Source: a virus
Taxonomy: Duplodnaviria > Caudoviricetes
DNA: 64,000 nucleotides
Strand: one strand, 5' to 3'
IMG/VR virus record: IMGVR_UViG_3300005201_000042
Location: 1 to 64,000 of that record
Shown here: in pieces, positions 6,680 to 47,125 of the stretch
Layout of the letters: each line of letters begins with the position of its first letter
Numbering within the stretch: position 1 is the stretch's first letter
Translations under genes and position numbers: made by a program
Notes under the pieces: model-generated
What the model was told of the DNA's origin: nothing
What the model saw: only the letters and a program-made list of their open reading frames with translations
Database searches by the model: none

Positions 6680-6865
6680 ATGCAGATAGATATTCCAGAT
6701 GAAATTTTTGCAAAAGTAGTCAGAGATTTAAGGCATTTTGAAAGTGGTCATGGAGCTAGGTCAGATTTACATGATGCTCTTTGTGTCTGTGAAACTCTGC
6801 TAGAATTCTTGGATGAGCATAAATGGTATGAGGAGAAATTAATAAGAGGACATTGTGATGAATAA
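6680..6865 (+). CDS. hypothetical protein
   Basis: 61-aa ORF with RBS. Confidence 0.5.
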   Translation: MQIDIPDEIFAKVVRDLRHFESGHGARSDLHDALCVCETLLEFLDEHKWYEEKLIRGHCDE

Positions 6866-8669
6866 AAATTACCTTAATTTTATTAGTTTCGCTCGAGGTA
6901 TTCAATGCGGTTTTAACACAAACGATATTCCATTACTTGAAGAAGAAAACGCACAACAGATTTACGACAAGGCTTTGGTCGGTCTCTGCTCTTCTTTTGA
7001 TATTGAGCAAGACATTTTAAACCAGTATAAGAACGGTGAGTTGGATTCTTGGGATGCTGTTGAACAGTTGGAAGACGAACTTGGTTATTCTTATGATGAT
7101 GCTTGTAAGAAGGTTTCTACTCTTTTTTCGGGTAAATTCTCTAGTAAGTTTGTGATCCCAAAAATAGAGGAAGCCCCCGCTTATTGGATTAGTCCAGATT
7201 GCAGAATTATTTCTGTTTATAAAAAGCACATTGATATGATTTGGGATTGTCCAGAGGCTTTTGGTTATTCTCAAAGGGATTTAGAGAATATTTACGATGC
7301 TTATAGTGAGCCTTATAGATCTGAGGGGGATGCTCGTAATTACATTGTAGATGATATGATTCTTAGACGAGGTTGGATTCGTATTCGTTTTCAGCATGTC
7401 AGTAATCTATATCATGTAGAAATTGGTGAATTACGCAATAAACGAAAAGATGCACTTTGGCTTTGGGCATCTGCCTTAGTACGAGTTAATTCACGAAAGG
7501 CTCTATCAAGAGTTATTATTTGTAAATGCGGTCAAAGCCAACCAGATTTTACAGGTTCTTTACAAGAACTAATTAACTGCAATTTATTTAGTTCTCATGG
7601 CATGGGTTTTCATCTTCTCGTTCCTATAAGTAATGTTTATGATTTTTTAAGTGTAAACCCTATTTATATGGCTTATAATAGGGGAAAGCGTAAACGATCC
7701 AAGTACCACGGCGCATTGGTCAATAATACCTTTGACGATGTTTCTACAGGGCTTTCTACGGTCTCACCTGCTTCTTCAGCATCCACAGCTTCCAGTATCA
7801 AAGCCCACCCCTCTATTCGCTTTCTAGTGGTTAATCATATTCTACATCCTACGAGAAGGCATTTGATACAGTCTTCTCTCTCTGGTTCTCTGGACACTCT
7901 TCTGTATCAAACTTACGTTACTGCTTTGGGAGGCAGGGTTTCCCCAGCTCCTGTTAATACCCCAGGTAATAATCTTAAACACACTGGTAAAAACGGACGG
8001 GTAGTGTTAAGTTTTAAGAGTGATTCAGGTCATTCCACCGAGGTTGACTTGGGAGGCAGTTTAGAGACTGGTTACGTTATACAGCAAATTGATGATGGGC
8101 TGGGTTTGTTTCCTGAAGGCACGGAGATAGGGGATCTTATTAAAAATGATGTTATACAGGAAATTATACGAGGTCAGGTTATGAGGGAAAGAGGAGATTG
8201 GAGTGTTATGAACGAGTTTGATAGAAAAGAGCCTTTTAATCTTATAAAGTCTAGTTCTGAGTACAGTTGGATTTTTTCAATGGCAAGGATGCAAGACCCT
8301 GATAACGATGTTCCCAGTTATCTTCACGATTTATTTTCTAAACTTCCTTTAGATGGATGGTTTGGTGACGATGTCAATCCAGAGCTTTGTAATAAGTTCT
8401 CTGCTCAGGTCGGTGTTAGTCCAGACTATGTTTTCTACTTTACTTTTAAGCGTGGTTCTGACAATCATTCTTTAGCAGAGTCTCCTGAAGGAGATGCATT
8501 TAAATTCTGCTCTTTGTTCCTTCAGAAAGGTTCTCAATGGTTTAAACGAGATAACCTATCTCAGGACGATTTTATTAAATGTAGAGAGTTTGTTCGTGTT
8601 GGTGATGTTTCTTCTGCTGTTTGGGAATTAAAGATGGAATCTACACCTAATAGAAATCCTTTAGCATGA
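6855..8669 (+). CDS. modular putative internal head polyprotein
   Basis: helical GYS module, WISP..GWIR domain, C-terminal MAR module; modules separated by LFSS, LIQSS, LIKSS, IFS. Confidence 0.55.
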   Translation: MMNKNYLNFISFARGIQCGFNTNDIPLLEEENAQQIYDKALVGLCSSFDIEQDILNQYKNGELDSWDAVEQLEDELGYSYDDACKKVSTLFSGKFSSKFVIPKIEEAPAYWISPDCRIISVYKKHIDMIWDCPEAFGYSQRDLENIYDAYSEPYRSEGDARNYIVDDMILRRGWIRIRFQHVSNLYHVEIGELRNKRKDALWLWASALVRVNSRKALSRVIICKCGQSQPDFTGSLQELINCNLFSSHGMGFHLLVPISNVYDFLSVNPIYMAYNRGKRKRSKYHGALVNNTFDDVSTGLSTVSPASSASTASSIKAHPSIRFLVVNHILHPTRRHLIQSSLSGSLDTLLYQTYVTALGGRVSPAPVNTPGNNLKHTGKNGRVVLSFKSDSGHSTEVDLGGSLETGYVIQQIDDGLGLFPEGTEIGDLIKNDVIQEIIRGQVMRERGDWSVMNEFDRKEPFNLIKSSSEYSWIFSMARMQDPDNDVPSYLHDLFSKLPLDGWFGDDVNPELCNKFSAQVGVSPDYVFYFTFKRGSDNHSLAESPEGDAFKFCSLFLQKGSQWFKRDNLSQDDFIKCREFVRVGDVSSAVWELKMESTPNRNPLA

Positions 8670-8672
8670 TGT

Positions 8673-8882
8673 ATGCAGTTAAATATTATCTTTGACGCAT
8701 CTTCTTTAGATGATATGCAGGTTAAACTGAATGAGCATTTTGGGCAGAAAATGCGTCTTATTAGAGTTTCTCTGTCTTTATTTGAATCTTACCATGTGCG
8801 GTTTACCGAGAAGTTTATTCCTCATATCTGGGAGTATCGTGTGGTTTGTAAAGATGGTAAGTATTTCTTTGGTTCTTTATAG
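8673..8882 (+). CDS. hypothetical protein
   Basis: 69-aa ORF. Confidence 0.5.
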   Translation: MQLNIIFDASSLDDMQVKLNEHFGQKMRLIRVSLSLFESYHVRFTEKFIPHIWEYRVVCKDGKYFFGSL

Positions 8883-8884
8883 CG

Positions 8885-8922
8885 TTATACATACTGGTAA
8901 ATTTTGTTAAAGGTGGTATGCT
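8885..8922 (+). promoter_or_regulatory. early promoter family copy
   Basis: TTATACATAC-TGGTAA-N16-TATGCT with extended TG. Confidence 0.55.
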
Positions 8923-8950
8923 TTAATAGGTAAATAGCAGGGAGATTATT

Positions 8951-9373
8951 ATGGCAAGGATTAAAGATGAGAGAACAATTCCACAGCATCTTCAGGATGG
9001 TATGGGTTTTGGGGTCGGTTACGAGGAGATACCATGGGATTTTTGGCTTGGGGATGATGCTGATTGTGGTAAATGCTCCACGATAGCTTGTAGGTATAGT
9101 GTTGAGGATGTATACTACTATTTTTGTTTTGATAGAGATTCACAAGGTGATTTTAAATTCAGAGCTTTAGTTGCATCACAAGAGTCTGGTACAGATTCTT
9201 CTCTTCCCCATAAGTGGTTTGCAAAGAAGTATACAGAACAAGATTTTGAGGGGGTTAGAAAATCAATTTGTCATTGTCAGGAGTACGCTGTTAGTGATTT
9301 AGGTTTAGTTCAGGAGGATATTCATAATCCTTTTAGTTTTATCTATAGGTTGAGGTTATCTAACGAGCTTTAG
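8951..9373 (+). CDS. free-standing MAR/FKFRAL-module protein
   Basis: paralogous to modules inside 6855-8669 and 9395-14755; RBS GGGAG. Confidence 0.65.
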   Translation: MARIKDERTIPQHLQDGMGFGVGYEEIPWDFWLGDDADCGKCSTIACRYSVEDVYYYFCFDRDSQGDFKFRALVASQESGTDSSLPHKWFAKKYTEQDFEGVRKSICHCQEYAVSDLGLVQEDIHNPFSFIYRLRLSNEL

Positions 9374-9377
9374 TTGT

Positions 9378-9385
9378 TTTATATA
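9378..9385 (+). promoter_or_regulatory. late promoter motif TTTATATA
   Basis: directly upstream of the 1.8-kaa polyvalent gene. Confidence 0.55.
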
Positions 9386-9394
9386 ATGTCTGGT

Positions 9395-12300
9395 ATGTCT
9401 ACTTTAAAAAACAAGTCTGTACCTATATTGTCAATGGCAAGGGGTCTTCCCTCGTCAGTTCCTTCTTATGTGTCTAACAGATTTAATTTCCCTGATGAGT
9501 TTGACGGTTATTATGGAGAGAATAAAAATGTTCAGAACGGGAATGTTTTTTCTCGTTATATTGAGCGCAAGGATAAAAATAATGTCCCTTTTGTTTTTCA
9601 TTTTGTTTTTGGTAGAGAGAAACATGCTTCTCTAGGGGAGTCTCTTCAGGGTAACGCATTTAAATTTAGGGCTTTATTTGTTCAGTATGGAGATAGAAGA
9701 TTTGCTAAGAAATATGAAGATGCTGCTTTTGATAACATCGAGAAAGTAGTTGTTAGTAATTTGTTATCTTCTATCAAAGTTCTTGAGTTATCTGAGGTTT
9801 CTGAAATAAGCCCGTTAATTTATATAAAAAGTGGTGTGGAAATCCACTCAAAGATAGTGGATACACGTACGTTAGATTTATTTGAAGATGCTGTCGATGA
9901 AGCTTTTACAACATCTGCTCCCGCACCTACTCCCAAGAAGGAACCAAAGCCTTCAACACAACCTGCTTCTCGCAAGTCAACTCAAAACTACGCTCATGAA
10001 GAGTCCCTTGAAGGTTTAAAAGATAAATACGTCAACACTTCGCAAGGCATTGATGGTTTTGAGGATTCTATTTACCTTCCTAATGGTGAAGAGGTTTCGG
10101 GTATCTGGAGATTAGTGGACGCTTTCTCTGTATCTCCATCTCATAACCCCTTTTCTTTTCACTCTACAAAAGGTTTCCCTCGCACTGCTGGGGGTTCGTC
10201 AGCTAATACAAGGGATTATTATAATGAAACTGACGCACAGTTACAGGTTGTTCAACTCGCAGGTGAGTTTGACGGTCGGGCTTTAGGTTACGATACTGCT
10301 GTCGTTGTTACAAAAGATGGTGTGGTTGTTTCTGGTAACAATAGGACGATGAGTTCTCAATTGGCGGCACGGAAAGGGACAGACACAAAATATATTGCTG
10401 CTCTAATAAAACGTTGTCGTTCTTTTGGTTTTACTCCTGAACAGGTTCAGGCTTTTGAGCACCCACGAGTTGTTTTTGAGATTGACTCTCAAGACTATTC
10501 TCCAGAGCATTTTGATAAATACAATCAATCTGATAAGAAGGAACAGTCTGAGGAAGCACGAATAGTAAAGTTCTCTAAAGTGTCAAAGCCTGATGTTCTT
10601 CGGGGTATTGCAGATGTTGCACGAAGGTATCAGTTTGATTTAACTCAAGTGTTTGCTATTCCTGCTGCCTGTGAAGAATTGATGTCTGTGTTTGTAAAAG
10701 CCAAAGTATTTAGTCAGGCAGAGCTTCCTAAGTACTTTGATGGAAATAAGGTGTCTTCTGCTGGTAAGCAGTTTTTATACGAATATATCTTAGGTGGTGT
10801 TTTATCCGAGCCTGTGGTTCGGGCTTTGTATTCTGAGGGTATGGGTAACTTGAAGCAAGCAGTAATTGGTTCTGCTCAGCTACTTTTAGAGAACTGGGCT
10901 TGTGGTAGTTATTCTGTTATGGACGAATTGAATGCTGCTATTCGTTACGCTATCTCATTTGTTACTGAGGTAAACAACGGCACGTTTGTAGTGCCTAAAA
11001 TTGATAAAGATGAAGCTAAAGCAATGTCTGCTGATGATAAGGTGGCTCACAACTTAAAAGCGTTCAATGTATGGGCTAGTCAAGGGGATTTGTTAGAGGA
11101 CAGGCATCCGTTGGTTTTGAAGCTTGCAGGGGCGTTGGTCTACTCTGTTCCTTTATTTAAAGATTATTTAACTAGGTTAAACACGGCTACAGCTTCTGCT
11201 GCTAAAACCGAGAGGGAAACTGAGGAGGCTGGTAACTCTGGCCTGTTCGGAGATGAGGAAGACTTTACGCCTGATCGTTATGGTTTATTAGAAAAAGCTG
11301 TAGCTTCGTGGCAAAGAAGAAATTTTGTTAAGAGAAATATATTAAGTTCTGTATTGAGGGGTAGTTTTTCTTTGTTTCCAGTTAAAAGGGATTGGAGTAA
11401 TATCTTTTCTAGTGTTGGTTCTGGGGCTAGTGTCTTTCAAAAGCTAGGAGACGTGTTAAAGTCTGGTTCTTCTTTTGTTGTTCAAAACTCTGAGTTGGGT
11501 AGCATTAGTATCGACAAAGGTTGCACGGGAAAGAATGGTTACGGGCTTTTGCACATTATCGAGGCGAGGCATTTTAGAGATAAGCTTTCTGTAGACGATC
11601 TTTGTGGTCTTATTTACAAAGTTGTAGAAGCCGCAGAAGGTGGTGAAGTTGTGTCGCATCAACCTGATCTTAAAGCTGGTCTTGATTACGGTCATGTGGG
11701 TATTGAGAAAGATGGTGTTATTGCTTATGTTAGCTTGGCTCGGTATGAAGATGTAAAAGATCGCTTCATATTAACTGGGTTTGCAATTTATGAAAAAGAA
11801 AAAGAGGCGACCGATGCTATACGAACGGGTATCGCTCAGTATGGCTACTCGCCTGAGTTCTCTTGTTTCCGATCTCAGGTGGGAGCGGTTATCGCCTCTC
11901 TTAATGGAGTATGTGGTAGTTTTTCAAATAATGCAAGTGTGTATAAAAACGGAGGTTTTATGGCAAATAATAAAACGATGGTTCGGTCTGGTCTAACTGG
12001 AGCTGGTACTGAAATGGACACAATGATTTCCGATATAAAAAATCTATTTGATAACCATCAAATTTCTGACAGTGAGGCTTATAAAAGGTTGTCAGGGCTT
12101 GGGCTTTCTGATCCTTTTATTCATAGGGTGATGGTAGATTGGTTTCATAGTAAAGAAGCTAGGCTTGCATCTGGTTTCTATCCTCATAGAAGTCTTCAAT
12201 CTCAAGCTCTCTTTCAAGACCTAAAAAACAAGATAATGAAATGGACTGCTCAAGACCCTAACAACAAAAAAGCCTATCAACAGGCTATGAAGTTGTTTAG

Positions 12301-14755
12301 GGAAAACTTCGGTAAGCATCCTCAAACTGAAAGAGACGCAAAGGTTATATTGAAGACTGCAAAGAAGATGGCTAAGACTGGTCAGATTTACGATGCAGAG
12401 TCTTTCAAACAAGAAGCCCAACAGGTAATGAATGAACAACCCCAGCAAGGTACACAAACTCAGACGCAACAGCAATCTCAAGGTCAACAAGGAAGTGTAG
12501 ACGCTTCTGATCCTGTGGCTCTGTTCAAAGCCATTCAAGCTCTCTACAGATACGGCTCTATTTCTAAAGATCAGGTTGATAAGGCTTTTAGAATGGTTGT
12601 AGGTGGTCAAGGAAGGCAAAATGCTTATAATATGTCAAACCAATCTCAAGGCGAGCAGATGGCTGCTTCCTTAAAGAGGGTTTCTTCTGGTTATGGTGCT
12701 TCTGACGATATTCCCTACGGGTTTAAACAGTTTGATCATGCAGTTAGAATCTACGACTCAAGTAAAGGTATGTTTGACCACTGGTATGCTCCTTCGGGCA
12801 TGGGAAATATCTCAGTTTATGAAAATAAGGATGGTTCTGGGCGGCTTGGCACTCTGAATTTTTCACTATTGAAGGTGTCTCCAGACCAGTTTTGGGGTTT
12901 TATTCGAGACAACGGGCTACTTGCTTCTGACGATGTTTATTCCTCTGTGGGGCTTTCTTCTGGTAAAAACCCAGGTGTAAGATTTGATAGACTTCCCAAG
13001 GGTGTTTCAGGTTTACAAATAGGTTCCAGGGTTAAATTCACACCTCTCAAGTCATCTAAAGACAATCTAGACTTTGTTGCACAGAAAGACACATTGTACG
13101 CTGGTAAAACTGGTGTTATAAGAGCAATTAAAAACGAAGTCTACAATGTTGAAATGCCAGATGAAGATGGTGTCCCAGGAGAGGTGATCTCTGCTCATAG
13201 TATGGAGTTACAGCGAGTAGCCTCTGAGGAAGAACTTTTCTCTGCCAGGGGTATTATTGCAGACCCAATGAGGGAGTACGTTCAACAATTTCTTTCTAAT
13301 ATTCCTTCTTTCACAAAAGTTCCAACAAACTACAAAGATGAACGTATTGTGAAGGAGAAACTAGAGCCTGATCATGTTTGCTATTGGTATTCCGAGACCA
13401 TTGATAATGGTAAGCCTTATACTGTTGAGTTCCACGTGTCTCCAGGTGAACCTTTTTGTGATGTGTATGTGGTTCGTGATTTTGATAATCACCCTTTGGA
13501 CGATGGAGGTTATCACATCGCAGATTTCGAAGATTGGAATTTATCTGAGGTTGATTATGTAGAGGGTTTGTTTGCTAAGGAAAAAGCTTTTACCGGGGAT
13601 AGTGCTTCTTTTGATAAAACTAAGACAAAGCCTGTAGAAGATGGTTTTGACGATGAAGATTATTCACAGATTATGGCTGGGTTGGATCCTCGAGTTTCTA
13701 TCATGTTAGAACTACATCCTGAACTTAGTCACTGGTCACCAGATGATTTAACAGTGTTATATGAATTGCAAGATAGAGGTGGGGATTATGTAGAAGATGT
13801 AAACCGTGTACTAAATACGAGAGATTCAAAGACTTTATTGTCATCTTTTGATAAATGGTCTGCCAGGGTCAGTGCTGGTCTTTCGCTTGGAAAGGGAATG
13901 TCTTTACCTGATATGGCTATTGTTTCTGGTCTAGCACGGATTTTATCTAGTGATTCTATTTCACGTCCTGATGACTCTTTATTTAAACGTGGTGATCGAG
14001 TAAAAGGGACTCCCAGTAACTATAGAAAAGAAGGTCAGTTGGGTACGGTACAAGGTGTCTCTGAGTACAGTGTTTATGGTGATTCTTGGGATATAGAATG
14101 GGACAATGGTGGTATTTCAAGAGCTTTTAAAAATGAGATTGAGCTTATTTCTTCTGGCTTGGCAAGGGTTTTGTCTGCAGGTGCTAATACTTCCACGGCT
14201 TTAACCCCAGAGGAGGTTGTAAGGGATTTTAAAGATGGCGCGATAGACTGGTATAACGCTTTTGATATGTTAGCTGATTATGAGGTATCTGATGAAGACG
14301 CAGAGAGGATGCTTGGGGTATCACGGGTTGTTCAAGGTTTCACCGAGGGTTACAACAAAACCTTAGACGTAGTGGACACTCTTGTTCATGACCCATTAAA
14401 GACAGTTGATGACGTTGCTTCTCTGCCTTTTAAGTTTTTGGACAAGGTTACTGGGAGGAGCAAGAAGAAGGTTAGGTCAAGTTATACACCCTTGTATTCT
14501 GGTGAGTTTAATCGTATACTATCTGCAGGAACAAGGAGTAGTGTTGTCGAGGAGTTCAACAAACTTCTTGAATCTGTCTTTCCTGATAAAAGATGGGAGT
14601 TGAAAAGAGCAGTTCCTATGAGAGGTGGTTGGTATACTTTAGATTTCTTAACGATAGATAAGTCAGATGTTAATTACAATGTGAAGTTTGACGAGAGGAT
14701 TTTCAAAGTTTGTAAGGATTCTAATAGTATTTGGATTATACAGGAGGATTTATAA
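9395..14755 (+). CDS. large polyvalent virion protein (ddrB-like ParB domain, PBECR-type nuclease domain, SH3/KOW-like modules)
   Basis: VVSGNNRTMS plus NTRDY (ddrB-ParB, ~10075-10500); KGCTGKNGYGLLHIIEARH (PBECR, ~11490-11830); two GxRV...GxV modules; start may be 9386. Confidence 0.7.
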   Translation: MSTLKNKSVPILSMARGLPSSVPSYVSNRFNFPDEFDGYYGENKNVQNGNVFSRYIERKDKNNVPFVFHFVFGREKHASLGESLQGNAFKFRALFVQYGDRRFAKKYEDAAFDNIEKVVVSNLLSSIKVLELSEVSEISPLIYIKSGVEIHSKIVDTRTLDLFEDAVDEAFTTSAPAPTPKKEPKPSTQPASRKSTQNYAHEESLEGLKDKYVNTSQGIDGFEDSIYLPNGEEVSGIWRLVDAFSVSPSHNPFSFHSTKGFPRTAGGSSANTRDYYNETDAQLQVVQLAGEFDGRALGYDTAVVVTKDGVVVSGNNRTMSSQLAARKGTDTKYIAALIKRCRSFGFTPEQVQAFEHPRVVFEIDSQDYSPEHFDKYNQSDKKEQSEEARIVKFSKVSKPDVLRGIADVARRYQFDLTQVFAIPAACEELMSVFVKAKVFSQAELPKYFDGNKVSSAGKQFLYEYILGGVLSEPVVRALYSEGMGNLKQAVIGSAQLLLENWACGSYSVMDELNAAIRYAISFVTEVNNGTFVVPKIDKDEAKAMSADDKVAHNLKAFNVWASQGDLLEDRHPLVLKLAGALVYSVPLFKDYLTRLNTATASAAKTERETEEAGNSGLFGDEEDFTPDRYGLLEKAVASWQRRNFVKRNILSSVLRGSFSLFPVKRDWSNIFSSVGSGASVFQKLGDVLKSGSSFVVQNSELGSISIDKGCTGKNGYGLLHIIEARHFRDKLSVDDLCGLIYKVVEAAEGGEVVSHQPDLKAGLDYGHVGIEKDGVIAYVSLARYEDVKDRFILTGFAIYEKEKEATDAIRTGIAQYGYSPEFSCFRSQVGAVIASLNGVCGSFSNNASVYKNGGFMANNKTMVRSGLTGAGTEMDTMISDIKNLFDNHQISDSEAYKRLSGLGLSDPFIHRVMVDWFHSKEARLASGFYPHRSLQSQALFQDLKNKIMKWTAQDPNNKKAYQQAMKLFRENFGKHPQTERDAKVILKTAKKMAKTGQIYDAESFKQEAQQVMNEQPQQGTQTQTQQQSQGQQGSVDASDPVALFKAIQALYRYGSISKDQVDKAFRMVVGGQGRQNAYNMSNQSQGEQMAASLKRVSSGYGASDDIPYGFKQFDHAVRIYDSSKGMFDHWYAPSGMGNISVYENKDGSGRLGTLNFSLLKVSPDQFWGFIRDNGLLASDDVYSSVGLSSGKNPGVRFDRLPKGVSGLQIGSRVKFTPLKSSKDNLDFVAQKDTLYAGKTGVIRAIKNEVYNVEMPDEDGVPGEVISAHSMELQRVASEEELFSARGIIADPMREYVQQFLSNIPSFTKVPTNYKDERIVKEKLEPDHVCYWYSETIDNGKPYTVEFHVSPGEPFCDVYVVRDFDNHPLDDGGYHIADFEDWNLSEVDYVEGLFAKEKAFTGDSASFDKTKTKPVEDGFDDEDYSQIMAGLDPRVSIMLELHPELSHWSPDDLTVLYELQDRGGDYVEDVNRVLNTRDSKTLLSSFDKWSARVSAGLSLGKGMSLPDMAIVSGLARILSSDSISRPDDSLFKRGDRVKGTPSNYRKEGQLGTVQGVSEYSVYGDSWDIEWDNGGISRAFKNEIELISSGLARVLSAGANTSTALTPEEVVRDFKDGAIDWYNAFDMLADYEVSDEDAERMLGVSRVVQGFTEGYNKTLDVVDTLVHDPLKTVDDVASLPFKFLDKVTGRSKKKVRSSYTPLYSGEFNRILSAGTRSSVVEEFNKLLESVFPDKRWELKRAVPMRGGWYTLDFLTIDKSDVNYNVKFDERIFKVCKDSNSIWIIQEDL
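14482..14520 (+). promoter_or_regulatory. early promoter embedded in CDS
   Basis: TTATACACCC-TTGTAT-N17-TATACT. Confidence 0.75.
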
Positions 14756-19070: not shown

Positions 19071-19220
19071 ATGGCAAGGTCAAGAAAAAAAAATCAACAC
19101 AGAGGTTGGGGTCAGAAGGGTTGTTTTGGTAATCCTAAACCAAATCATTATTCTGAGGACGAGTATGTTCCTACCATCCGGCATCAGAAGGGTGGTAAGC
19201 ATTCAAGGCATCAAAGATAA
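19071..19220 (+). CDS. small basic protein (49 aa, not in ORF track)
   Basis: RBS AAGGAGG; MARSRKKNQHRG...; TAATG overlap with the next gene. Confidence 0.55.
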   Translation: MARSRKKNQHRGWGQKGCFGNPKPNHYSEDEYVPTIRHQKGGKHSRHQR

Positions 19221-27005: not shown

Positions 27006-27296
27006 ATGGCGGAACAAGCTTTATCGGCAATTAACCAAACTTTGGATACTTGGTTTCTAAGTTACACTAAGAAATTGTTTGCGTACTATGGAGAAGGGAC
27101 TTATGGGCATTCTGCAGAGACCAACGCTTGGCAAATATCTATTCCAGATAATAATTTGAAAGTGAGTATTGGCTGGTCTGCTGAGCAAGGGGATTATGTT
27201 TACATAGTAATCAAAGATGGTTCTAGAAAGGATGGAAGGGTTCAGAGTTTAAAGGATCTGAAACTTTTATTTCCAGATGTTTTTGGGGGGTCTTAA
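27006..27296 (+). CDS. hypothetical protein (probably leaderless)
   Basis: ATG 4 nt after the -10, no SD; C-terminus resembles the tail modules of 27277-28404 and 43514-47125. Confidence 0.55.
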   Translation: MAEQALSAINQTLDTWFLSYTKKLFAYYGEGTYGHSAETNAWQISIPDNNLKVSIGWSAEQGDYVYIVIKDGSRKDGRVQSLKDLKLLFPDVFGGS

Positions 27297-35118: not shown

Positions 35119-37158
35119 ATGCCGATGTTCACGTCTTTAAAAAGTAGGCTACCGCAGATAGGTGAGAAATTACAAAAGTTTATTTTAGGTGCAGATGACG
35201 AAGAGTTAATTTCAAGGGTAAAAAACTACACTAATCACGCTAGTTATGGAGCAGACATCTGGGGTGATTCTTCCTCTATGCAGACTCTTGGCTTGCTTCG
35301 TGAAGTCCCTGCAATGCTTCGAGATCCTATTATTCAATCTTGTATCGGTATTATTATGGAGACTTCTTTTCAGATGAATGATAAGAATAAAGTTCTCTGG
35401 CCTGTGTCTTCTTATGATTCAATCAAGAAGGAGTTAGAAAACTTCCATGAAAAAGTAAACATGAGCCAGCACGCAGTTATTCTGGGGTTTAATCTTTTAC
35501 CGTGGGGTAATTTGCCTTACAAGCACCACTTTGATAAAGATGGTAAATTCTCAGACTTTACTCCTATTCCAGACTTCACAAAGGTTGTTCCTGTTGTTGT
35601 TTCTGGTAAGACCTTAGGGTTTATGGTTGGTAATCAGTTTTGTTTCCCTTACGAGTTTTCTTATGCTCAGTTAGAGTTCTATAAAAATCTTGGGGGGATT
35701 TACAAAAGTAACTTTGTACAGTTCTCAGGGAATATGGACGGTAAAGATGTATTCGGAGAGGACTTTCAGAATGAGTTTGTTGTTGCACCTTCTTATTTGT
35801 CCACTGCGGCAAGACCGTGGAAGAATATAAATATAATTGAAGACGCTCTACTTTTAAATCGAATGGATCAATCTAATTACTACAGAATATTCTCAGTTCT
35901 GGTCGGAGGTTCTGTTACTTCTAAGTCAGCTATAAGGACTCTTAACTACTATCGTAACTTGTTTAAGAAGGTTCGCAGGGTGTCTTATAATTCTTCTGGT
36001 ATGGCTTCATCTGGTGTAGGGAATGAGTTTGAGATAATACTTCCTAAAACTGAAAAACAGGGTTTAGAGGTTACTGACGTGGGAGGAACCGTGGATATTA
36101 AGGCTCTTAAAGACCTTGATGTTCAGTACAACAAGCTTTTTGCGGCTCTTAAGGTTCAACCCTCTCAGATTGGTTTTGGAGAGGAGCAGACAAACGCTAT
36201 CGGGGATACTAATGGACAGTCTTACGACCGGCGTTTAGCAAGAACCTGTAAGATGCTGGTTTACTCCGTTCAAAAGACAATCAAGAATTTTGATTATCTA
36301 TACCTTCGCTCTCGAGGTTATGATGTTTCTTTAGATGACTGGTCTTATGGTTCTGTTTCTCTTTCTGTGTTGGAGGATCAAGATAGGGGTACAACTCTAA
36401 AAACTGCAATTGAAAATTTAAAGAGTTTTGCTGAGGTTCTCACTTCTTTACAACTTCAAGAATACAATAAGTCTTATCTGGTTGAATCTGTCTTAGGTTC
36501 TGCTCTGTCTTCTGTTGGAGTGGATGTGAAAGAGCTATTAAAAGTTCCAGAGGGTCAGGAAGCACCTATGGAAGCAGAAGGTGGAGCTGAGGGTGCACCT
36601 CCCCTGTTAGCATCTAGGCAACCCAACCAAATAAATTATAAGAACGCCTATCTAACAAGTATGTTTGATACTATGGAGACAGTTAAGCTAGCTTCTCCAG
36701 AGATTATACAGTCCATGCGAGCTTCTATGTTGGGAAAGGCAGATTCAAATGTTAAAATGATTTCATCTTCAAAAGGTTCTAATATTTTGCCAGCTGCTAT
36801 TTTGGATGATACTACTGCTTATACCTATCCTGAAGAAGCCCAGGTTGATTTAACTGGTCAAGTTGGTTTTATTCAAGGTGAGACTTCACAGATTGTTAGT
36901 GACTTGAATAAAGCTAAATCAAAGAAGTGTGAGGATATGGCTACACTTGATTTTAATACGTCTATTTTAGTTCCAAGTGATTTAAAGATGACTCTTGGAG
37001 ATTACAACACTGCTGGTATCCGTGCTTTGGGTACAGGTTACATTAACTCAAGGGGTGAGGTAATTCTCACGAACAAGGCTGATGTGGCTACTTTCTTATC
37101 GATGAAGCGGTCTGGTTTACTGTCTTGTTTGGTTTCGCGGCTTTATCAGGTTCCGTAG
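35119..37158 (+). CDS. portal protein (T4 gp20-like)
   Basis: IEDALLLNRMDQSNYYRIFSVLVG matches the gp20 EDALVIYR..RRxF pattern; size and position fit. Confidence 0.8.
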   Translation: MPMFTSLKSRLPQIGEKLQKFILGADDEELISRVKNYTNHASYGADIWGDSSSMQTLGLLREVPAMLRDPIIQSCIGIIMETSFQMNDKNKVLWPVSSYDSIKKELENFHEKVNMSQHAVILGFNLLPWGNLPYKHHFDKDGKFSDFTPIPDFTKVVPVVVSGKTLGFMVGNQFCFPYEFSYAQLEFYKNLGGIYKSNFVQFSGNMDGKDVFGEDFQNEFVVAPSYLSTAARPWKNINIIEDALLLNRMDQSNYYRIFSVLVGGSVTSKSAIRTLNYYRNLFKKVRRVSYNSSGMASSGVGNEFEIILPKTEKQGLEVTDVGGTVDIKALKDLDVQYNKLFAALKVQPSQIGFGEEQTNAIGDTNGQSYDRRLARTCKMLVYSVQKTIKNFDYLYLRSRGYDVSLDDWSYGSVSLSVLEDQDRGTTLKTAIENLKSFAEVLTSLQLQEYNKSYLVESVLGSALSSVGVDVKELLKVPEGQEAPMEAEGGAEGAPPLLASRQPNQINYKNAYLTSMFDTMETVKLASPEIIQSMRASMLGKADSNVKMISSSKGSNILPAAILDDTTAYTYPEEAQVDLTGQVGFIQGETSQIVSDLNKAKSKKCEDMATLDFNTSILVPSDLKMTLGDYNTAGIRALGTGYINSRGEVILTNKADVATFLSMKRSGLLSCLVSRLYQVP

Positions 37159-37775: not shown

Positions 37776-38831
37776 ATGGGACAATGGATTTTCGGTAAGG
37801 CATCCCCTGTTTCTTTGTCTGATAAAGGCAAGCAGTTATTAAAATCTTCAGGTTGTATTGTAAGTGATTATGTTGGTGAGTCTGGTTCTTCCAGCAATGG
37901 TCTTCTCTGTACCTTTAAATCTGTTCCTATTGCCTTCTACGACGTTCCTACGCTCAATCAGATGGTATTTAGCCGTAAGCTCTGGGAATGTCTGTTAGAG
38001 AACCAATATCTCAAACAATCAATGGAGAACGGTTCACACTATGGAGAGGCTAAACACGCCGACCGTGATGAGGTTTATCTTGATGAAATAGCTTGCAGGG
38101 TGAACAAGTTCTGGTTCGGTGATAACAATATTCTTTTGGGTGATGTAGACATTCCAGACACTCCTAAAGGACGAATTGTTCATTCCCTTGCTAAAATCAG
38201 CAGGGTTGGTATATCTTCCAGGGGTTTTGGCGAGTTAAGGAACAGGGACGATGGTTTAAAGGACGTTATTCCTGACCAGTATATGCACGTCTGCTGGGAC
38301 ATGGTTGCTTTCCCTGCTGTGCCTGACGCTCACATGACTTTAATTACTGGGGATTCACCTTATGACGAGACAATCAATATGTCCACGGAGCTTCGTAACT
38401 TGATAAGGGAGGCTTATCAAAGGAATCCTAAAGACAAGGCTTTACAAAAGTTGGTTTCCACTGCAAAGATACCCACTGGTAAGAAGTACGATTTTTCACT
38501 TAAAAATGATCTAGACAGAGCAATAATCTCTCATGAGTTAAAGAGGAGAAATAGTTATCCACCCTTGCATTCTAGAGGCATAAGTCGTATAATGAGTTCT
38601 AGAAGAACAATTTCTGCAGCAGTGGCTTATATTTCACAGGCAGTAGGTTCTTTTTATACTGGGGCTTCTTGGAGATTGTCTGTTGAAAATCTACCTGAGG
38701 CTACTTTGGATAATAAGGGTTCTGTTCAGTCTCTTAGTATTTACTATAAGGTAACTAATAAAGAGAGTAGAAAAACTTTTAATATCCGTGCAGTGGTTTC
38801 TTCAAATGGTTTTCAGTTAAGGAGGGGTTAG
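37776..38831 (+). CDS. prohead core protease (T4 gp21-like) with C-terminal extension
   Basis: NQMVFSRKLW, YGEAKH, VGISSRGFG, WDMVAFPA. Confidence 0.88.
   Translation: MGQWIFGKASPVSLSDKGKQLLKSSGCIVSDYVGESGSSSNGLLCTFKSVPIAFYDVPTLNQMVFSRKLWECLLENQYLKQSMENGSHYGEAKHADRDEVYLDEIACRVNKFWFGDNNILLGDVDIPDTPKGRIVHSLAKISRVGISSRGFGELRNRDDGLKDVIPDQYMHVCWDMVAFPAVPDAHMTLITGDSPYDETINMSTELRNLIREAYQRNPKDKALQKLVSTAKIPTGKKYDFSLKNDLDRAIISHELKRRNSYPPLHSRGISRIMSSRRTISAAVAYISQAVGSFYTGASWRLSVENLPEATLDNKGSVQSLSIYYKVTNKESRKTFNIRAVVSSNGFQLRRG
38555..38593 (+). promoter_or_regulatory. early promoter embedded in CDS
   Basis: TTATCCACCC-TTGCAT-N17-TATAAT. Confidence 0.75.
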
Positions 38832-39777: not shown

Positions 39778-41244
39778 ATGATTGAATCAATGGATGAACA
39801 GGGTGTACGTTCTGCTCTGGCTAGTCGGTTTCAGAATGTAGCTGCTTCGGCAGGTGGGGGTAAACCCAGCATATATCAAGATCTAATTGCAAGTTCTGCC
39901 GCAGCTTACCAGAGGAAGTGGAAAAAAGAACTTCCCCAGTCTGTTAAAGCGGTTCTAATGCAGTCTCTTGATAAGATGACCCAGATATTCCAGAACCGTG
40001 ATCGGGTTTCGAGAGAAACAATCATGTCTGCGGTGTCAGATATAGCTAAAGTAGACAATCCTATTACTCTGGCTTACAACCTGATGTCAATTCTTATTCC
40101 TAACTTTGCTTACACTGAGGTTATCGGAATTCAGCCCATTCCTACAAAGGAATCTCCTGTTTTCTATCCGAGGATTGTGGCGAATGAGAATAGGAATAAT
40201 GTGACAAAAGGCTCTGTTCTGCTTGGGTCAACAAACTGGACAGCAAGTAACTCGTTCACAACTAACCAGGTAGCTTCTCCTGTGACTGTTGGTAATACTA
40301 CGGCTCTTTCTTTTACTGCACCTGAAGGTAATATTACGCCGGGTAGCCTTGCGATTACATTGAAGCTTGTAGGCTTGGGTACTTACGTGGTGTTTGATGA
40401 TGGTAAAGGGGTTTTAGTTCCTATTTCTGGTGTCACTGCCTCTACGGCTGGTACAGTAAACTACGCTACTGGTGGGGTTTCTTTAACCTTAGCCGCAGCG
40501 GCTCCAGCTAACTCATCGGCATCCGCTCGCTATCGTTATGAGTTTGCAGATACTACAAAACCTGCACAGGCTAAGCTTGAATGGGTAACTGAGAAAGTAC
40601 GTGCAGAACCCTACAGAATTCGCACAATTTACGAACTTGATGATTTCTTCCAGGTCAAGCAAGTTCTGAGCAACTACGATATTGACTCGGTTCTTTCAAG
40701 TTCGGTGGCAGGTTATATAAACAAAGAAATCAGCGGGAATGTCTTTGATGACATTCTTCTGAAGACTGATGCTGACTTTGCGTGGAATTCGTCTAATCCG
40801 AGTGGTGTTGCTTGGGCGTTGCACAGGTTGTCTTTAATGCAGACATTTGTAAGGGCTGGCAATGGTATTCGTCAGAACATTGCACGTGCTGGAGGTAATA
40901 TTGCCATCTGCGGTAATGAGTGGATGAACTTCATTGAGACTTTGGGTGACGATCTTTGGAAACCAGAGAAGTTTACTGAAGAACCAATAGGGCCTTACGT
41001 TGCAGGTACTTTGGCTGGTAAATTCAAGATTCTTAAGAATCAGGATTACCCTGATACCAAAGCGGCAATGGTGTACAAAAGGGATGACGTGGATGCTTCA
41101 ATTGTTGGTGGTGTGTTCATCGGTTTGTATGCTACTAACCCAGTGGCAATGGACGACCTTAAGGTTATTCAGGGCATGGGCACTCAGTTTGGGTGGCTCA
41201 AGACCTTTGATAACTCAATAGTGTCTCTTACGTTACAGCAGTAG
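39778..41244 (+). CDS. major capsid protein (T4 gp23-like)
   Basis: IPNFAYTEVIGIQPIPTKESPVFY, INKEI, GTLAGKFKILKNQDY; between protease and terminator. Confidence 0.88.
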   Translation: MIESMDEQGVRSALASRFQNVAASAGGGKPSIYQDLIASSAAAYQRKWKKELPQSVKAVLMQSLDKMTQIFQNRDRVSRETIMSAVSDIAKVDNPITLAYNLMSILIPNFAYTEVIGIQPIPTKESPVFYPRIVANENRNNVTKGSVLLGSTNWTASNSFTTNQVASPVTVGNTTALSFTAPEGNITPGSLAITLKLVGLGTYVVFDDGKGVLVPISGVTASTAGTVNYATGGVSLTLAAAAPANSSASARYRYEFADTTKPAQAKLEWVTEKVRAEPYRIRTIYELDDFFQVKQVLSNYDIDSVLSSSVAGYINKEISGNVFDDILLKTDADFAWNSSNPSGVAWALHRLSLMQTFVRAGNGIRQNIARAGGNIAICGNEWMNFIETLGDDLWKPEKFTEEPIGPYVAGTLAGKFKILKNQDYPDTKAAMVYKRDDVDASIVGGVFIGLYATNPVAMDDLKVIQGMGTQFGWLKTFDNSIVSLTLQQ

Positions 41245-43302: not shown

Positions 43303-43470
43303 ATGAAAAGTAAGTACTCTGTTGAGAAGAGAACCGCTGACGAACGCTTTACTCTTACAATTCCAGGTTTGGACTATGCTGTTGGGGATGTTTACTTTGT
43401 TTTAAAAGAGCATGAGCAAGTTGTCGCTTGGGCACATACAGAGGATGGTGCTTGGGCTTGTAGACTCTAA
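43303..43470 (+). CDS. hypothetical protein (55 aa, not in ORF track)
   Basis: ORF ends just before the terminator. Confidence 0.45.
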   Translation: MKSKYSVEKRTADERFTLTIPGLDYAVGDVYFVLKEHEQVVAWAHTEDGAWACRL

Positions 43471-43476
43471 CTTAAC

Positions 43477-43508
43477 GCCATCCTTCGGGATGGCTTTCGT
43501 TTTATATA
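43477..43508 (+). terminator. terminator fused to late promoter, copy 1
   Basis: GCCATCC-TTCG-GGATGGC-TTT then TTTATATA (43501-43508). Confidence 0.85.
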
Positions 43509-43513
43509 CTAAT

Positions 43514-46500
43514 ATGAATAATTTTGTCTCTGTGTCTTCAAAGCCTTTAGTTATACGAATATCATCCTCTGCTAATCCAGGCTATATTTCAAAAGCTGTA
43601 ACTACTGTTAAGAGGTTTCTAGACAACGTTGGTGCTTGGTATAAGTATCACAGAAGCAATAAATCGAATAGTGAGTATTTTCTGGTTGAACGTCCGAATG
43701 ACAGGATGTCTCCGGAGGTTGACGTTCGTGTTTCAGATCACAATCTCCCACACGTATATGATCAACCAGACCTAGATATTGACCCCAGTTCTCCAGGTCG
43801 TATTGGTTCTTACTCTGTTCCAGAGGCTCTAGACTTGCTTGAGGGCTTCTTTGACGGGGAATACGTAAATATAGTTGAGGGTGAGCCTATTGTGTCTTCT
43901 AAAACTTATACACCCTTGTATTATGGCAATCGCAAGGGTATTATAAAGAGTAGTAGACGGGAGGCAACGCTTGAACGGTTTAACAAGATTGAGCAAACTC
44001 AACCAGATGTATGGCGTATATTACATACAAAGGCATCCGATCCTAGTATGCAGGGTTATAATACCCTTTTGGGTGTGGGTTCTTGGGACTATCACCAAGA
44101 TTCAACTTTAGCTGGTTTGATTAGGGATTCTTGGAAAAAAGGTTATACTACTTTCTTCTTGGAAGACAACGAGGTTGTTCATGGTTTTTTAGCTTTTATG
44201 GTTAGTGGTGATACAATTTATAATGTTAAGACTTTTTCAGTGGTTAGGGACGTTAAAAACGGAGAGGATTTAAAGAGGTTTGTGAGGGATTACGTGCCAA
44301 ACTATAATTTAGTTTGGGAGGCACGTGAGGACAACAAAGCATGTAAGCGTTACGAGGATATAACGAGGTTGTATGGTGGTACTGTTACACCGAGTACAGA
44401 AAATCCTAACCATCTCATTTTTAAGATTAGAAAGGGGTCTGTGCCGAATTCCACACGGGTTTCTTTACATTCTCATAGCAGGTTGGAGCAAAGCTATAAA
44501 AATAGGTTTTCCTCATCCTCACCCACGGTTTGCAGTGAGTTCGGAGCTTCTTTTAAGCAGTTTTCACTGGAGAATAGTTCTTCTGCAATCAAGAATAGAC
44601 GATTTACAAGAAACATTAAAATCTTAAGTACTTTTAACGAACAAGCCTATTCAGATTGGTTTTTAGAAGAATCCTCTAGGTTTCTTGGTAAATCTGAGGA
44701 TGAAGTTCTTTCTCTCCCAAATTACAAAGATAAGCTAGACACTTTTTTGGATGAGGCACGTGAATGGCATTCTATGTCTCAAGAGGAAAGGGAAAGGTGG
44801 TATTTGTCAGGTGCTGGTAGAACTATTTGTACGTCTTCTGTTGTGCGTTTTTTATGGGCGGATAAGTCTTATCCATCCTTGTATTCTAAACTTTCTCAAG
44901 GTAATATTAACAAGTCTATGGGTCGTAAGTTTATTTTTAATTCCAAAGAGATGCTCTCAGGCGGTGTTTGGATAAGCCCTTCTGGAGATATGTTTGGTGT
45001 TCCTTTGACTCATATAAAAGCTGTAATAGAAGACCCTGCTAAGTTTGGTTTATCTGTTGAACAGTTAAAGGCTATTTACAATAAGCATAACGAGGGTATT
45101 GGATCAGAGGGGGACGCAAGAGACGAGGTTATTTCTTTGCTCATTTTTAATGGCTGGGTAAGAATTAGGTTTTACCCAGGCGAGTATTTTCATGTAGAGT
45201 TAAATAAATTAAGTCAAAAATATAAAAATGTTTTATTCTCTTGGGCTTCTAAAGTGATCAGTAAGTCTCCAGAGAAGAAAGCTCTTTCTGTCATTATTTG
45301 CGAGAGACTAGGAAATTTTGAATATTCTTTTAAATTAGAAGATTTGCAGGTTTCTTTTGTTTCTTCTGGTAAAACTGGAGATTTAGCTTATTGGATAAGT
45401 CCTTCGGGAGAGCTTATAAGTACGCATGGTAGTCATACAAGTACAGTAGTGGAAACTCCTGAGGTTTTTGGTTTTACAGAGGAAGAAGTTAATACTTTAT
45501 TTTCGGTCGGTGAGGAGGAAGCTGTTCTTAAGTGTTTAATAGGTAACGGTTGGATAAGGCTTCGTTATCAGGCTGGTTGTTATTTTGTCTCTGTGTTGTC
45601 TTTGTCTCCAGAGACCCAGCAAAGGTTGCAGAACTGGGCTTTGCATGAGGGGAACGAAGATAAGGATACTACAGTTATTATTGAGATGTTGGTTTCATTT
45701 AACGTTATAAAGGTTACTTTACGAGATGTTTCTAGAGGTGTTTTTTCACATGATGCTTCCCTGCCTATCCATTCATCGGTTGATTATGATGAGTGGAGTC
45801 TTATTCCTAGTAGTCTTAGAACAATAGGAAACGCACAACTAATCGAGTCTGCTACTATTCAAGACCTATTAGACGAGAACGATAAGAACCCAGAGTTTAC
45901 TCACAGGGCAGAGCATTTAGACGCTACGAAGGCTCAGGGTGATTCAGAAATTACTCGCTGTTACGCTTCCACAGTCGAGTTAAGAACCAAGTCTGAGCAT
46001 TTTAAGGAGAATAATACCTATTATCGGCAATGGGTACTTTTTAAGGATTTTGTTTCAATAGCACGGGACAAGAAGATCAAACTTGAGGACGCTGTGGATT
46101 ATGCTATTAACTTTTGTGATATAACTATTAGATGTTCCTGCCCTGATTTTTTGTATAGAGGGTACTCTTACATGGGTGATCAGCTTGGTTATCTTTATGG
46201 TCTCCCAAGAGAGAAGCGGTTTCCTAAAAGAAATAACCCCAATCTTAAGCTTGCGGTTTGTAAGCACTCGGATATAGCATTAGAACATCTCCTTAAAAAT
46301 AAAGAGAAACTTATAAAAATGTTTGGTGTATATTACAAGAGGATAAAAGAGACTCCACCTGACACTATGATTGCTGTCCCTGCTAAAGCCGCAGAGGAAA
46401 AGAAAGAGGAGTCTATTGAGGACTTCTTAGCTGGTTTTGACGAGGATGGAAATAAAATATCAGAAGAAAAAGCAGACCTTAAAGAAGATGACGGTGTTGA

Positions 46501-47125
46501 GACTATTTCAGAACAAGACCCTGACTCTGGTGTTATTAAAATAGACACAAAACTTGCCGAGGGTAATTTACCGCCAGACCAGCAGGTTAAGTACGCAGGC
46601 GATGAAGATAAACCTGTGGACGAAAACACTCTAGAAAATGTGGCTGATTCTATTTCCGATGAGGAAGAAGAGGAATTAGCCACTCAGATTGACGAAGCTT
46701 CTCTTTCTGGTTCTCCTAGGAATGATAATGAGAAGTTCATGCACGAGTGGTCTTTCCAGCGGTTTAAACCTAATACTTATACAGACTTGTATCCTAATAA
46801 TTATCATGCTAGTCTTATAACAAGTTCACCAGACAAAGATTATGAACCTGCTAAGTCTTATGTAAGAAACTGGTTGGACAGTATTTGTAAGAGTGTTCAA
46901 GCGAACCTAAAAAAGAAGGGTGTTGTTTCTACAATAAGTCCTGTAACAGGTTTGACTTGGAAAGTAGCAGTAGGTCAGAAGGATGTTCTTAAAATAGACC
47001 TTTCCTTCCCTTCTGGTAATTACTGCTTTAGTTATACATATTTAGATAGAACAAGTAAATCATTTTCAGGAAAGACTATGAAAATGGATGCTTTAATACA
47101 GCTTGTTCCAAAGGTTGGGGTTTGA
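43514..47125 (+). CDS. large modular virion protein: RVSDH domain, GNAT-like domain, two WISP domains, SWIM Zn finger, acidic region, tail module
   Basis: start moved from 43412 because a terminator and late motif lie upstream; CSCPDF...CKH SWIM; EDNKACKRYE GNAT-like. Confidence 0.65.
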   Translation: MNNFVSVSSKPLVIRISSSANPGYISKAVTTVKRFLDNVGAWYKYHRSNKSNSEYFLVERPNDRMSPEVDVRVSDHNLPHVYDQPDLDIDPSSPGRIGSYSVPEALDLLEGFFDGEYVNIVEGEPIVSSKTYTPLYYGNRKGIIKSSRREATLERFNKIEQTQPDVWRILHTKASDPSMQGYNTLLGVGSWDYHQDSTLAGLIRDSWKKGYTTFFLEDNEVVHGFLAFMVSGDTIYNVKTFSVVRDVKNGEDLKRFVRDYVPNYNLVWEAREDNKACKRYEDITRLYGGTVTPSTENPNHLIFKIRKGSVPNSTRVSLHSHSRLEQSYKNRFSSSSPTVCSEFGASFKQFSLENSSSAIKNRRFTRNIKILSTFNEQAYSDWFLEESSRFLGKSEDEVLSLPNYKDKLDTFLDEAREWHSMSQEERERWYLSGAGRTICTSSVVRFLWADKSYPSLYSKLSQGNINKSMGRKFIFNSKEMLSGGVWISPSGDMFGVPLTHIKAVIEDPAKFGLSVEQLKAIYNKHNEGIGSEGDARDEVISLLIFNGWVRIRFYPGEYFHVELNKLSQKYKNVLFSWASKVISKSPEKKALSVIICERLGNFEYSFKLEDLQVSFVSSGKTGDLAYWISPSGELISTHGSHTSTVVETPEVFGFTEEEVNTLFSVGEEEAVLKCLIGNGWIRLRYQAGCYFVSVLSLSPETQQRLQNWALHEGNEDKDTTVIIEMLVSFNVIKVTLRDVSRGVFSHDASLPIHSSVDYDEWSLIPSSLRTIGNAQLIESATIQDLLDENDKNPEFTHRAEHLDATKAQGDSEITRCYASTVELRTKSEHFKENNTYYRQWVLFKDFVSIARDKKIKLEDAVDYAINFCDITIRCSCPDFLYRGYSYMGDQLGYLYGLPREKRFPKRNNPNLKLAVCKHSDIALEHLLKNKEKLIKMFGVYYKRIKETPPDTMIAVPAKAAEEKKEESIEDFLAGFDEDGNKISEEKADLKEDDGVETISEQDPDSGVIKIDTKLAEGNLPPDQQVKYAGDEDKPVDENTLENVADSISDEEEEELATQIDEASLSGSPRNDNEKFMHEWSFQRFKPNTYTDLYPNNYHASLITSSPDKDYEPAKSYVRNWLDSICKSVQANLKKKGVVSTISPVTGLTWKVAVGQKDVLKIDLSFPSGNYCFSYTYLDRTSKSFSGKTMKMDALIQLVPKVGV
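43906..43944 (+). promoter_or_regulatory. early promoter embedded in CDS
   Basis: TTATACACCC-TTGTAT-N17-TATTAT. Confidence 0.65.
46777..46815 (+). promoter_or_regulatory. early promoter embedded in CDS
   Basis: TTATACAGAC-TTGTAT-N17-TAGTCT with extended TG. Confidence 0.65.

Follow-up and report, generated by a model that had tools for sequence, protein, structure and literature searches.

Must a prohead protease of the T4 gp21 family cut after glutamate? All characterised T4-like prohead proteases (those of T4, phiKZ, 201phi2-1 and SPN3US) do so (PMC5694885). The question is raised anew by a 64,000-nt stretch of phage DNA (the window; positions 1 to 64,000 of IMG/VR record IMGVR_UViG_3300005201_000042, an 86,115-bp virus contig rated ~60% complete by CheckV), in which an original prediction, made from the letters alone, took eight large open reading frames (ORFs) to be polyproteins: strings of short modules joined at an [ILV]-x-S-[SAGM] motif, which a gp21-type protease encoded nearby would cut after Ser, releasing many small effectors in the head for injection with the DNA. 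We write sites with an arrow (↓) at the predicted cut, P1 being the residue before it and P1' the residue after it. On comparative sequence evidence we put at roughly 0.6 the probability that this protease, a member of Peptidase S77, has changed its P1 preference from Glu to Ser and recognises [I>L,V,M]-x-S↓[S,G,A], often after K/R-R/K-P, and that the capsid protein, the protease tail and five to nine long proteins follow the same code.

A serine motif in the long head-region proteins

The eight ORFs are real and lie, like all genes of the window (~39% G+C), on the + strand; for three of them we use the longest-ORF starts 9374, 22936 and 43412 in place of the internal ATGs taken originally (9395, 22957 and 43514). 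A comparison of motif frequency with other proteins, proposed as a check of the original prediction, came out in its favor: the eight ORFs contain 92 copies of [ILVM]-x-S-[SAG] versus 36.5 expected from within-protein shuffles (z 9.5, a count reached in 0 of 300 shuffles), and the 14,384 amino acids (aa) of the rest of the contig contain 65 versus 68.6 expected, i.e. no enrichment. The excess over chance is about 55 sites, spread across five to nine long head-region proteins. Taken one at a time, five of the eight ORFs are enriched (9374, 25360 and 30042 at p<0.001; 20531 and 22936 at p~0.02), while 6855, 27277 and 43412 are not (p 0.09-0.18), such that the original claim holds individually for the first group and not for the second.

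The composition of the motif was also examined within the eight ORFs. An unbiased scan of a-x-b residue pairs placed I-x-S at the top (62 vs. 34.9 expected) and R-x-I second. When all 20 residues were tried at P1, Ser was the sole outlier (z 9.4), followed by Q (3.0), A (2.5) and E (1.4); E at P1 before [SAG] was found 30 times for 23.4 expected. The R/K-P prefix of the original prediction proved real, with Arg raised at P5/P6 and Pro at P4, and the strongest form of the motif is K-R-P-[IV]-[KR]-S↓[SGA]. Ile at P3 before S[SAG] was found 38 times for 10 expected (p 2e-12), and [ILVM]-x-S with a P1' other than S, A or G showed no excess (0.90x). Low complexity of a Ser-rich kind is ruled out by these last two results, P3 Ile still being 3.8x enriched given S[SAG] and other P1' residues not being enriched. 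The Glu-type codes [ILV]xE (1.23x) and [SAG]xE (0.91x) were likewise rejected, lacking enrichment in the head proteins.

The codons of the motif vary, and the P1 Ser codons (TCN/AGY) are used in genome-wide proportions, which places the constraint at the protein level rather than in a DNA repeat or an embedded promoter; with no promoter-like k-mer enriched in the flanks either, a DNA-level cause is ruled out. The octamer TTTATATA was present in 3 of the 92 motif windows, for 1.6 expected. Three of its five copies inside the eight ORFs fall within 36 nt of a motif site, too few to account for the motif.

A control set was assembled from Glu-type phages: T4 gp21, gp22, gp67 and gp68, together with the protease-scaffold fusions of six cultured phages. 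There [ILVM]xE[SAGT] occurred 107 times for 31.9 expected (3.35x) and the Ser motif 9 times for 20.2 (0.45x). The test thus picks out the proven code of T4 in substrates proven for T4; the same signature, with Ser replacing Glu, is seen in the window. In the close relatives the motif accounts for 1.4-3.3% in long ORFs versus 0-1% elsewhere, and enrichment extends, more weakly, to other Ser-type phages: four pre-portal ORFs of the G001 genome (27 vs. 14.2 expected), a pre-capsid ORF of L025 (14 vs. 6.7) and the L014 portal (9 vs. 3.0).

BLAST comparisons with relatives agree with the claim that each ORF is a series of modules linked by the motif: the blocks appear reshuffled, with tags (copies of the motif) at the joints and block boundaries on sites. 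The blocks of ORF 30042 occur in other combinations among nine homologues, with conserved tags where they join (for example, G-V-P-L-A-S-S-V-K-R-S-I-K-S-S vs. ...S-S-F-K-R-P-V-Q-S-S). All-against-all BLAST found a W-x-S-P module in ORFs 6855, 27277, 32470 and 43412 (two copies in the last), a 'MAR' module in 6855, 8951 and 9374, and a 'SPDKDYE...KVGV' end module in 27277 and 43412. Several modules also exist as free-standing genes. In three relatives, free-standing W-x-S-P genes begin M-D-G-G-L-W-V-S-P, the equivalent of fused F-I-T-S↓G-G-G-A-W-F-S-P and E-M-L-S↓G-G-V-W-I-S-P, and their start maps one residue from site 291 of ORF 32470. Free-standing 104-aa genes of relatives L004 and L008 begin at residue 266/267 of ORF 27277, one residue from P-L-H-S↓G. 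In the window itself, the free-standing 'MAR' module (8951..9373, 140 aa) starts, by its BLAST boundaries, M-A-R... where the fused copies follow I-F-S↓ (W-I-F-S↓M-A-R, ORF 6855) and I-L-S↓ (P-I-L-S↓M-A-R, ORF 9374). The ORF 43412 boundaries at 514 and 655 are 2-3 residues from sites. Of 14 independent boundaries of fusion or fission, 6 are no more than 3 residues from a site, for 1.36 expected (P 1.2e-3).

The sites also tend to fall in predicted linkers and to be conserved. Disorder around the sites, another proposed check, agreed with the prediction, with 21 of 24 sites in two AlphaFold2 (AF2) models in segments of predicted local distance difference test (pLDDT) <50 (10 of 13 in ORF 30042 and 11 of 11 in ORF 25360). 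The P1 Ser was kept in 68% of orthologue pairs vs. 46% for other Ser (p 3e-8), and P2 varied freely.

Among the predicted polyproteins with individual enrichment, the longest is ORF 9374 (9374..14755, 1793 aa; 28 sites vs. 9.1 expected, z 6.6), with a DdrB-like ParB domain at residues 237-361 (PF18763, 36.1 bits) and a segment at residues 1697-1779 homologous to the protease C-terminal module (match to residues 257-340 of the L008 protease). ORF 25360 (25360..26934, 524 aa; 11 sites vs. 2.1, z 6.4) includes K-R-P-I-K-S↓V and K-R-P-I-K-S↓G, and its sites 253 and 278 are kept in 4 of 4 orthologues. ORF 30042 (30042..31865, 607 aa; 13 sites vs. 4.3, z 4.5) has five predicted folded blocks and strong sites in the linkers, at 14, 118, 266, 291, 347, 409, 417, 490 and 568; it alone begins with sites (V-H-S↓S-V-K-R-P-I-K-S↓L), which elsewhere are mostly internal. 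ORF 20531 (20531..22957, 808 aa; 9 sites vs. 4.1, p 0.018) gives split matches to L004 and L001 proteins. ORF 22936 (22936..25296, 786 aa; 10 sites vs. 4.7, p 0.015) contains DUF7249 at residues 346-420 (PF23907), and 9 of its 10 sites are kept in both orthologues. Its start lies 22 nt ahead of the ORF 20531 stop, and L001 has both as one 1184-aa protein, indicating that fusion and fission also occur at gene boundaries.

The other long proteins resemble these in layout. ORF 6855 (6855..8669, 604 aa; 6 sites vs. 3.3, p 0.10) has modules in common with ORFs 43412, 9374 and 8951: a W-x-S-P module and, after W-I-F-S↓M, a C-terminal 'MAR' module. ORF 27277 (27277..28404, 375 aa; 5 sites vs. 3.0) comprises three modules, namely a W-x-S-P module, a cassette P-L-H-S↓G...L-I-I-S↓S and the C-terminal 'SPDKDYE...KVGV' module. 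ORF 43412 (43412..47125, 1237 aa; 10 sites vs. 6.2, p 0.09), downstream of the capsid gene and weakly enriched, is composed of two W-x-S-P modules, two Y-T-x-L-Y cassettes and the 'SPDKDYE...KVGV' end module. A ninth candidate, ORF 32470 (32470..34404, 644 aa; 8 sites vs. 4.6, p 0.08), was outside the original list and resembles these three non-significant ORFs; its conserved N-terminal domain (1-286) is followed by P-I-L-S↓A-F-I-T-S↓G and a W-x-S-P module. As to module functions, PHROGs and Pfam gave only the DdrB-ParB domain of ORF 9374, DUF7249 of ORF 22936 and weak matches, the DdrB-ParB domain being the one module with a recognisable conflict-type domain; for the ORF 30042 model, Foldseek gave no PDB match at E<=0.001.

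A second element is seen at junctions and ends. Proteins of the window and their homologues in L001, L004, L006 and L008 end in ...G-F-[QT]-[KQ]-P-[TA]-[AVM]-x or stop after ...L-G-F; examples are ...T-G-F-Q-K-P-T-A-R in ORF 30042 (31800-31865) and ...T-F-T-Q-P-T-M in ORF 25360 (26900-26934), and the element also occurs internally as L-G-F-K-K-P-V-A-S↓T (30870-30890). This G-F-x-K-P-T-A-type end may be a C-terminal docking peptide.

The capsid site, the protease and their setting

T4 gp23 is cut at E65↓A66 and gp24 after E10, and the T4 record annotates both as cleaved by gp21. The major capsid protein of the window (39778..41244, 488 aa) belongs to the gp23 family (Pfam PF07068; 476 homologues at E<=1e-3). 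We aligned 122 full-length cluster representatives with T4 gp23 and gp24 using MAFFT, and found I82-M83-S84↓A85 (40021..40032) in the same columns as L63-T64-E65↓A66 of gp23, L-R-E10↓S of gp24 and the [LIMF]-x-E of ~110 distant homologues. This is the predicted maturation site, at which a cut would remove an 84-residue propeptide. Nine clade members (six cluster representatives and three relatives) have [IL]-x-S-A there (I-[MT]-S-A in L001 and L004), and the two nearest outgroups, in ungapped register, have I-K-E-A and V-S-A-A. Two motif copies had been pointed out in the capsid N-terminus, one of which (ETIMS↓A) is kept in relatives and the other (LIAS↓S) is not, its position varying (S/N/Q). 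A profile of the capsid alignment found no match among PDB sequences, and the nearest phages of Glu type (P0013) and Ala type (P0016) are represented by contigs of insufficient length for co-variation, or ones that stop at the capsid gene.

The prohead protease (37776..38831, 351 aa) belongs, as originally stated, to the family of T4 gp21: it matches PF03420 above threshold (38.7 bits, cut-off 27) and phrog_207 (E 6e-21), its catalytic His and Ser align, and its gene lies between those of the portal and the capsid protein. The His is in GEAKHA and the Ser in GISSRGFG (T4 equivalents G-E-L-N-H-P and G-V-S-S-R-G), motifs that align with T4 gp21 and six cultured phages and, for the Ser motif, with structure 5JBL. 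A six-frame search of the contig returned PF03420 at 39.4 bits as the sole S77 match, and found on the contig were no S78, ClpP or MPTase-PolyVal domains, leaving the S77 enzyme as the sole protease found there.

The C-terminal extension of the protease starts after residue ~260. Directly after the catalytic domain is a double-site cassette, S-Y-P-P-L-H-S↓R-G-I-S-R-I-M-S↓S (38553..38615), and the motif sites that the original prediction had placed in the protease tail are conserved, the proteases of three relatives having S-Y-T-P-L-Y-S↓G-x4-[AG]-I-[FM]-S↓[MSA]. The same cassette precedes the C-terminal modules of at least 20 head-region proteins of the window phage and its relatives. In the protease it may be a self-cleavage (release) site that parts the C-terminal module from the catalytic domain. 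At the other end of the protein, L-L-K-S-S is invariant in the protease N-terminus of four related phages (window 37839-37850, residues 22-25). By analogy with T4 gp21, which is documented to cleave nine residues off its own N terminus, a cut at L-K-S↓S could activate the enzyme. Protease-scaffold fusions of 435-773 aa are encoded by cultured and more distant relatives (L019-L024, L013 and L014); the window clade has the 351-aa protease, with no recognisable scaffold gene between the protease and capsid genes.

The portal protein (35119..37158, 679 aa) matches phrog_213, and its relatives match PF07230. The motif noted originally in its tail persists, [IV]-x-S↓S at residues 548-551 being kept in four phages (ISS↓S, IAS↓S, ISS↓S and VTS↓S) as a candidate site.

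Judged from its genes, the phage is an uncultured one with a contractile tail and a T4-type capsid protein, portal and prohead protease. A weak large-terminase match (3962-5821) precedes the portal, protease and capsid genes in the head module; the long multi-module ORFs lie mostly between the terminase and portal genes, with ORF 43412 downstream of the capsid gene, and from 49.9 kb onward come the genes for tail sheath, tube and tape measure. The nearest cultured phages have capsid proteins only ~25% identical. Closer relatives were obtained by exact-protein look-ups and are the metagenomic contigs L001/L009, L004, L006 and L008, identical in gene order; the portal-protease-capsid order is kept in four relatives. 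Scans for relatives gave 0 loci in viral contigs and 2 loci in metagenomes. One Ser-type relative (L013/L016/L017), with a capsid protein 38% identical, is on the 182-kb contig C23 of G001, inside a 2.7-Mb assembly of a bacterial genome; whether prophage or binned jumbo phage, it could point to the host of the clade. Other genes of the window are a clamp-loader-type AAA ATPase (1336-2292), a DNA methyltransferase-like gene (17720-18700), a PALP/threonine-dehydratase-like gene (19220-20023) and, among the tail genes, a PmgG-like gene (56517-57377).

Who would cut, and what would become of the pieces

Cutting at the sites, the S77 enzyme as the cutter and packaging of the long proteins are what we infer from these sequences, packaging from gene position and from the one module in common with the protease. 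In the mechanism we propose, the long proteins and the protease would enter the prohead core, perhaps via the shared C-terminal modules that follow the Y-T-P-L-Y-S cassette, and the protease would cut at the tags after shell assembly. Densely tagged unstructured stretches would then yield short peptides that leave, like T4 gp22 fragments, and folded modules of ~60-200 residues would be released as separate head proteins. That these modules would act as small effectors injected with the DNA was inferred in the original prediction.

An alternative of some standing, although we consider it unlikely, accepts the Ser code and gives the long proteins another role: they would mainly be the missing scaffold or core, cut up and expelled before DNA packaging, rather than injected cargo. 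A separate scaffold gene was not recognised, and the protease has 351 aa vs. the 435-705 aa of the scaffold-fused forms in cultured relatives. In ORF 25360, residues 165-348 are conserved and yet modelled with low confidence by AF2, with sites 5-43 residues apart, and in T4 the core proteins gp22, gp67 and gp68 are degraded to small peptides; several motif-dense stretches, this one for example, may thus be disposable scaffold of the gp22 type rather than cargo. However, many of the predicted products would be folded modules of 60-200 residues, apparently too large for the pores of the shell, the DdrB-ParB domain of ORF 9374 is known from head-packaged polyvalent proteins, and modules occur as free-standing genes as well. 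Scaffold and cargo roles are compatible, not exclusive.

It is improbable, in our estimation, that the motif is left uncut and serves as an inter-domain linker, as a docking or targeting peptide (for the capsid interior or for DNA, given the basic K-R-P-I-K prefix) or as a recombination junction. The motif does mark module junctions that are reshuffled among relatives, and a likeness to binding peptides is seen in the basic prefix and in Y-T-P-L-Y-S and G-F-x-K-P-T-A, two elements that recur. Against this, the Glu site of the capsid protein has given way to the same tetrapeptide logic, constraint at P3, P1 and P1' with P2 free is the pattern of protease subsites, free-standing genes start exactly at P1', and the statistics mirror those of T4's proven substrates; the variety of codons speaks against simple recombination scars.

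Slightly less probable still is cutting of the motif by another protease (one encoded in the ~40% of the genome that the contig lacks, a host enzyme with a rule like that of signal peptidase I, i.e. a small residue at -1 and an aliphatic one at -3, or an unrecognised autoprocessing module), with the S77 enzyme keeping its Glu specificity: the incomplete contig, the E80 site described below and the protease alignment would allow it, but capsid and protease bear conserved Ser sites exactly at T4-type Glu positions, Glu motifs are at 1.23x/0.91x in head proteins vs. 3.35x at the same gene positions of Glu-type relatives, other protease families were not found on the contig, and the sites, read directly from the sequences, lack the hydrophobic h-region that a signal peptidase requires.

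Several points nonetheless weigh against a switch of the S77 enzyme to Ser. The part of the genome beyond the ~60% complete contig leaves room for another protease. An alignment of 7 Ser/Ala-type with 7 Glu-type proteases gave no convincing S1-pocket residue; the differences seen were H-A/T vs. mostly H-P after the catalytic His, and P-A-V-P vs. P-[SG]-x-x. At the capsid site, profile-profile alignment places the E column on A85 rather than S84, the match requiring a one-residue gap and the distance to the conserved P-N-[LF] core being 24 vs. 23 residues, and T4 carries a 15-residue insertion there, with hhalign giving a different register, at low confidence, when T4 is the master. Four residues upstream of I-M-S84, most clade capsids have a conserved [ST]-[KR]-E80 that might be cut as a Glu-type site; P0023 and P0013 lack this E. 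Three of the eight long ORFs (6855, 27277 and 43412), not enriched individually, are tied to the others by shared modules only. Both AF2 models, built from shallow alignments, have low overall confidence (mean pLDDT 53 and 44); the orthologue pairs behind the conservation of P1 Ser are not independent; and the more distant Ser-type phages are only ~2x enriched. The P1-Ser specificity of the original prediction is favored by comparative evidence (the position of the capsid site, the mirror statistics, conservation, linkers, boundaries, the protease cassette and the lack of another protease among those found on the contig); no feature that we found in the protease sequence explains the change from a Glu preference.

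A wider proposal is that a T4-type lineage recoded the whole of its head-maturation proteolysis from P1-Glu to P1-Ser (capsid, protease and >50 sites), and that the same tag serves to load small proteins as few chains and to release them inside the capsid. We hold this tentatively, giving it somewhat short of an even chance.

Relation to known systems and significance

The closest comparison is T4 gp21 with its substrates (gp23, gp24, gp22, gp67, gp68, IPI-III and Alt), which agrees with the window in protease family, in portal-protease-capsid order, in a homologous capsid propeptide site, in a hydrophobic P3, free P2 and small P1', in the many sites in core proteins and in self-processing of the protease (predicted here). 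It differs in having Glu at P1 where the window has Ser, cleavage after Glu not being what our computed sites indicate. T4 substrates, moreover, are single proteins that lose a short leader, whereas the window has multi-module chains with up to 28 sites; the N-termini of the long ORFs are mutually unrelated, and a shared, singly cut leader for capsid targeting, as in T4, was not found among them. What is new here is the Ser code.

In the giant phages, gp21-like proteases (phiKZ gp175, that of 201phi2-1 and SPN3US gp245) likewise process many (8-19) head proteins, including portal and ejected proteins, with propeptides cut at several sites and Ser preferred at P1', and gp245 removes its own C-terminal peptide (PMC5694885, PMC10052503). 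They differ in cutting after Glu (S/A/G-x-E or A-x-E) and in mostly trimming N-terminal propeptides rather than module chains. Polyvalent proteins, predicted to be delivered with the DNA and processed by a zincin-like MPTase domain embedded in them (Iyer et al. 2017, PMC5512222), have several unrelated, reshuffled domains per chain and adjoin virion genes, as is seen here. Of their signature domains, DdrB-ParB is in ORF 9374 (36.1 bits) and MPTase-PolyVal is absent from the contig, the joints of the window carrying a tag of head-protease type instead of an embedded MPTase.

A small P1 has a precedent outside the phages. Herpesvirus assemblins (Peptidase S21), described as homologous to phage prohead proteases (Cheng et al. 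2004), cut at sites where P3 is L/V, P1 is small and uncharged (Ala) and P1' is Ser/Thr (YLQA↓T, VQA↓S), so that this fold class can accommodate a small P1, and a release site splits the protease from a C-terminal assembly domain. With Ala at P1, a Ser-His-His triad and few substrates, they are like the window in site logic only; a Pfam scan at E<=0.01 gave no S21 match.

As to a reason for the change, a 2026 preprint reports that CBASS CD-NTases sense gp21-type proteases via I/L-x-E bait loops (PMC12991175). Recoding of P1 could be an escape from such protease-sensing immunity, a possible selective reason. If the Ser code is indeed read by the S77 enzyme, the gp21 family can change its specificity and take dozens of substrates along, and matched sets of enzymes and substrates would be at hand for finding specificity determinants in the assemblin/gp21 fold. 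A simple rule would predict mature capsid proteins and head contents in this uncultured phage group, a second, orthogonal tag would be available to load foreign proteins into phage capsids and release them there, and a switch of protease specificity would be a plausible route of immune evasion.

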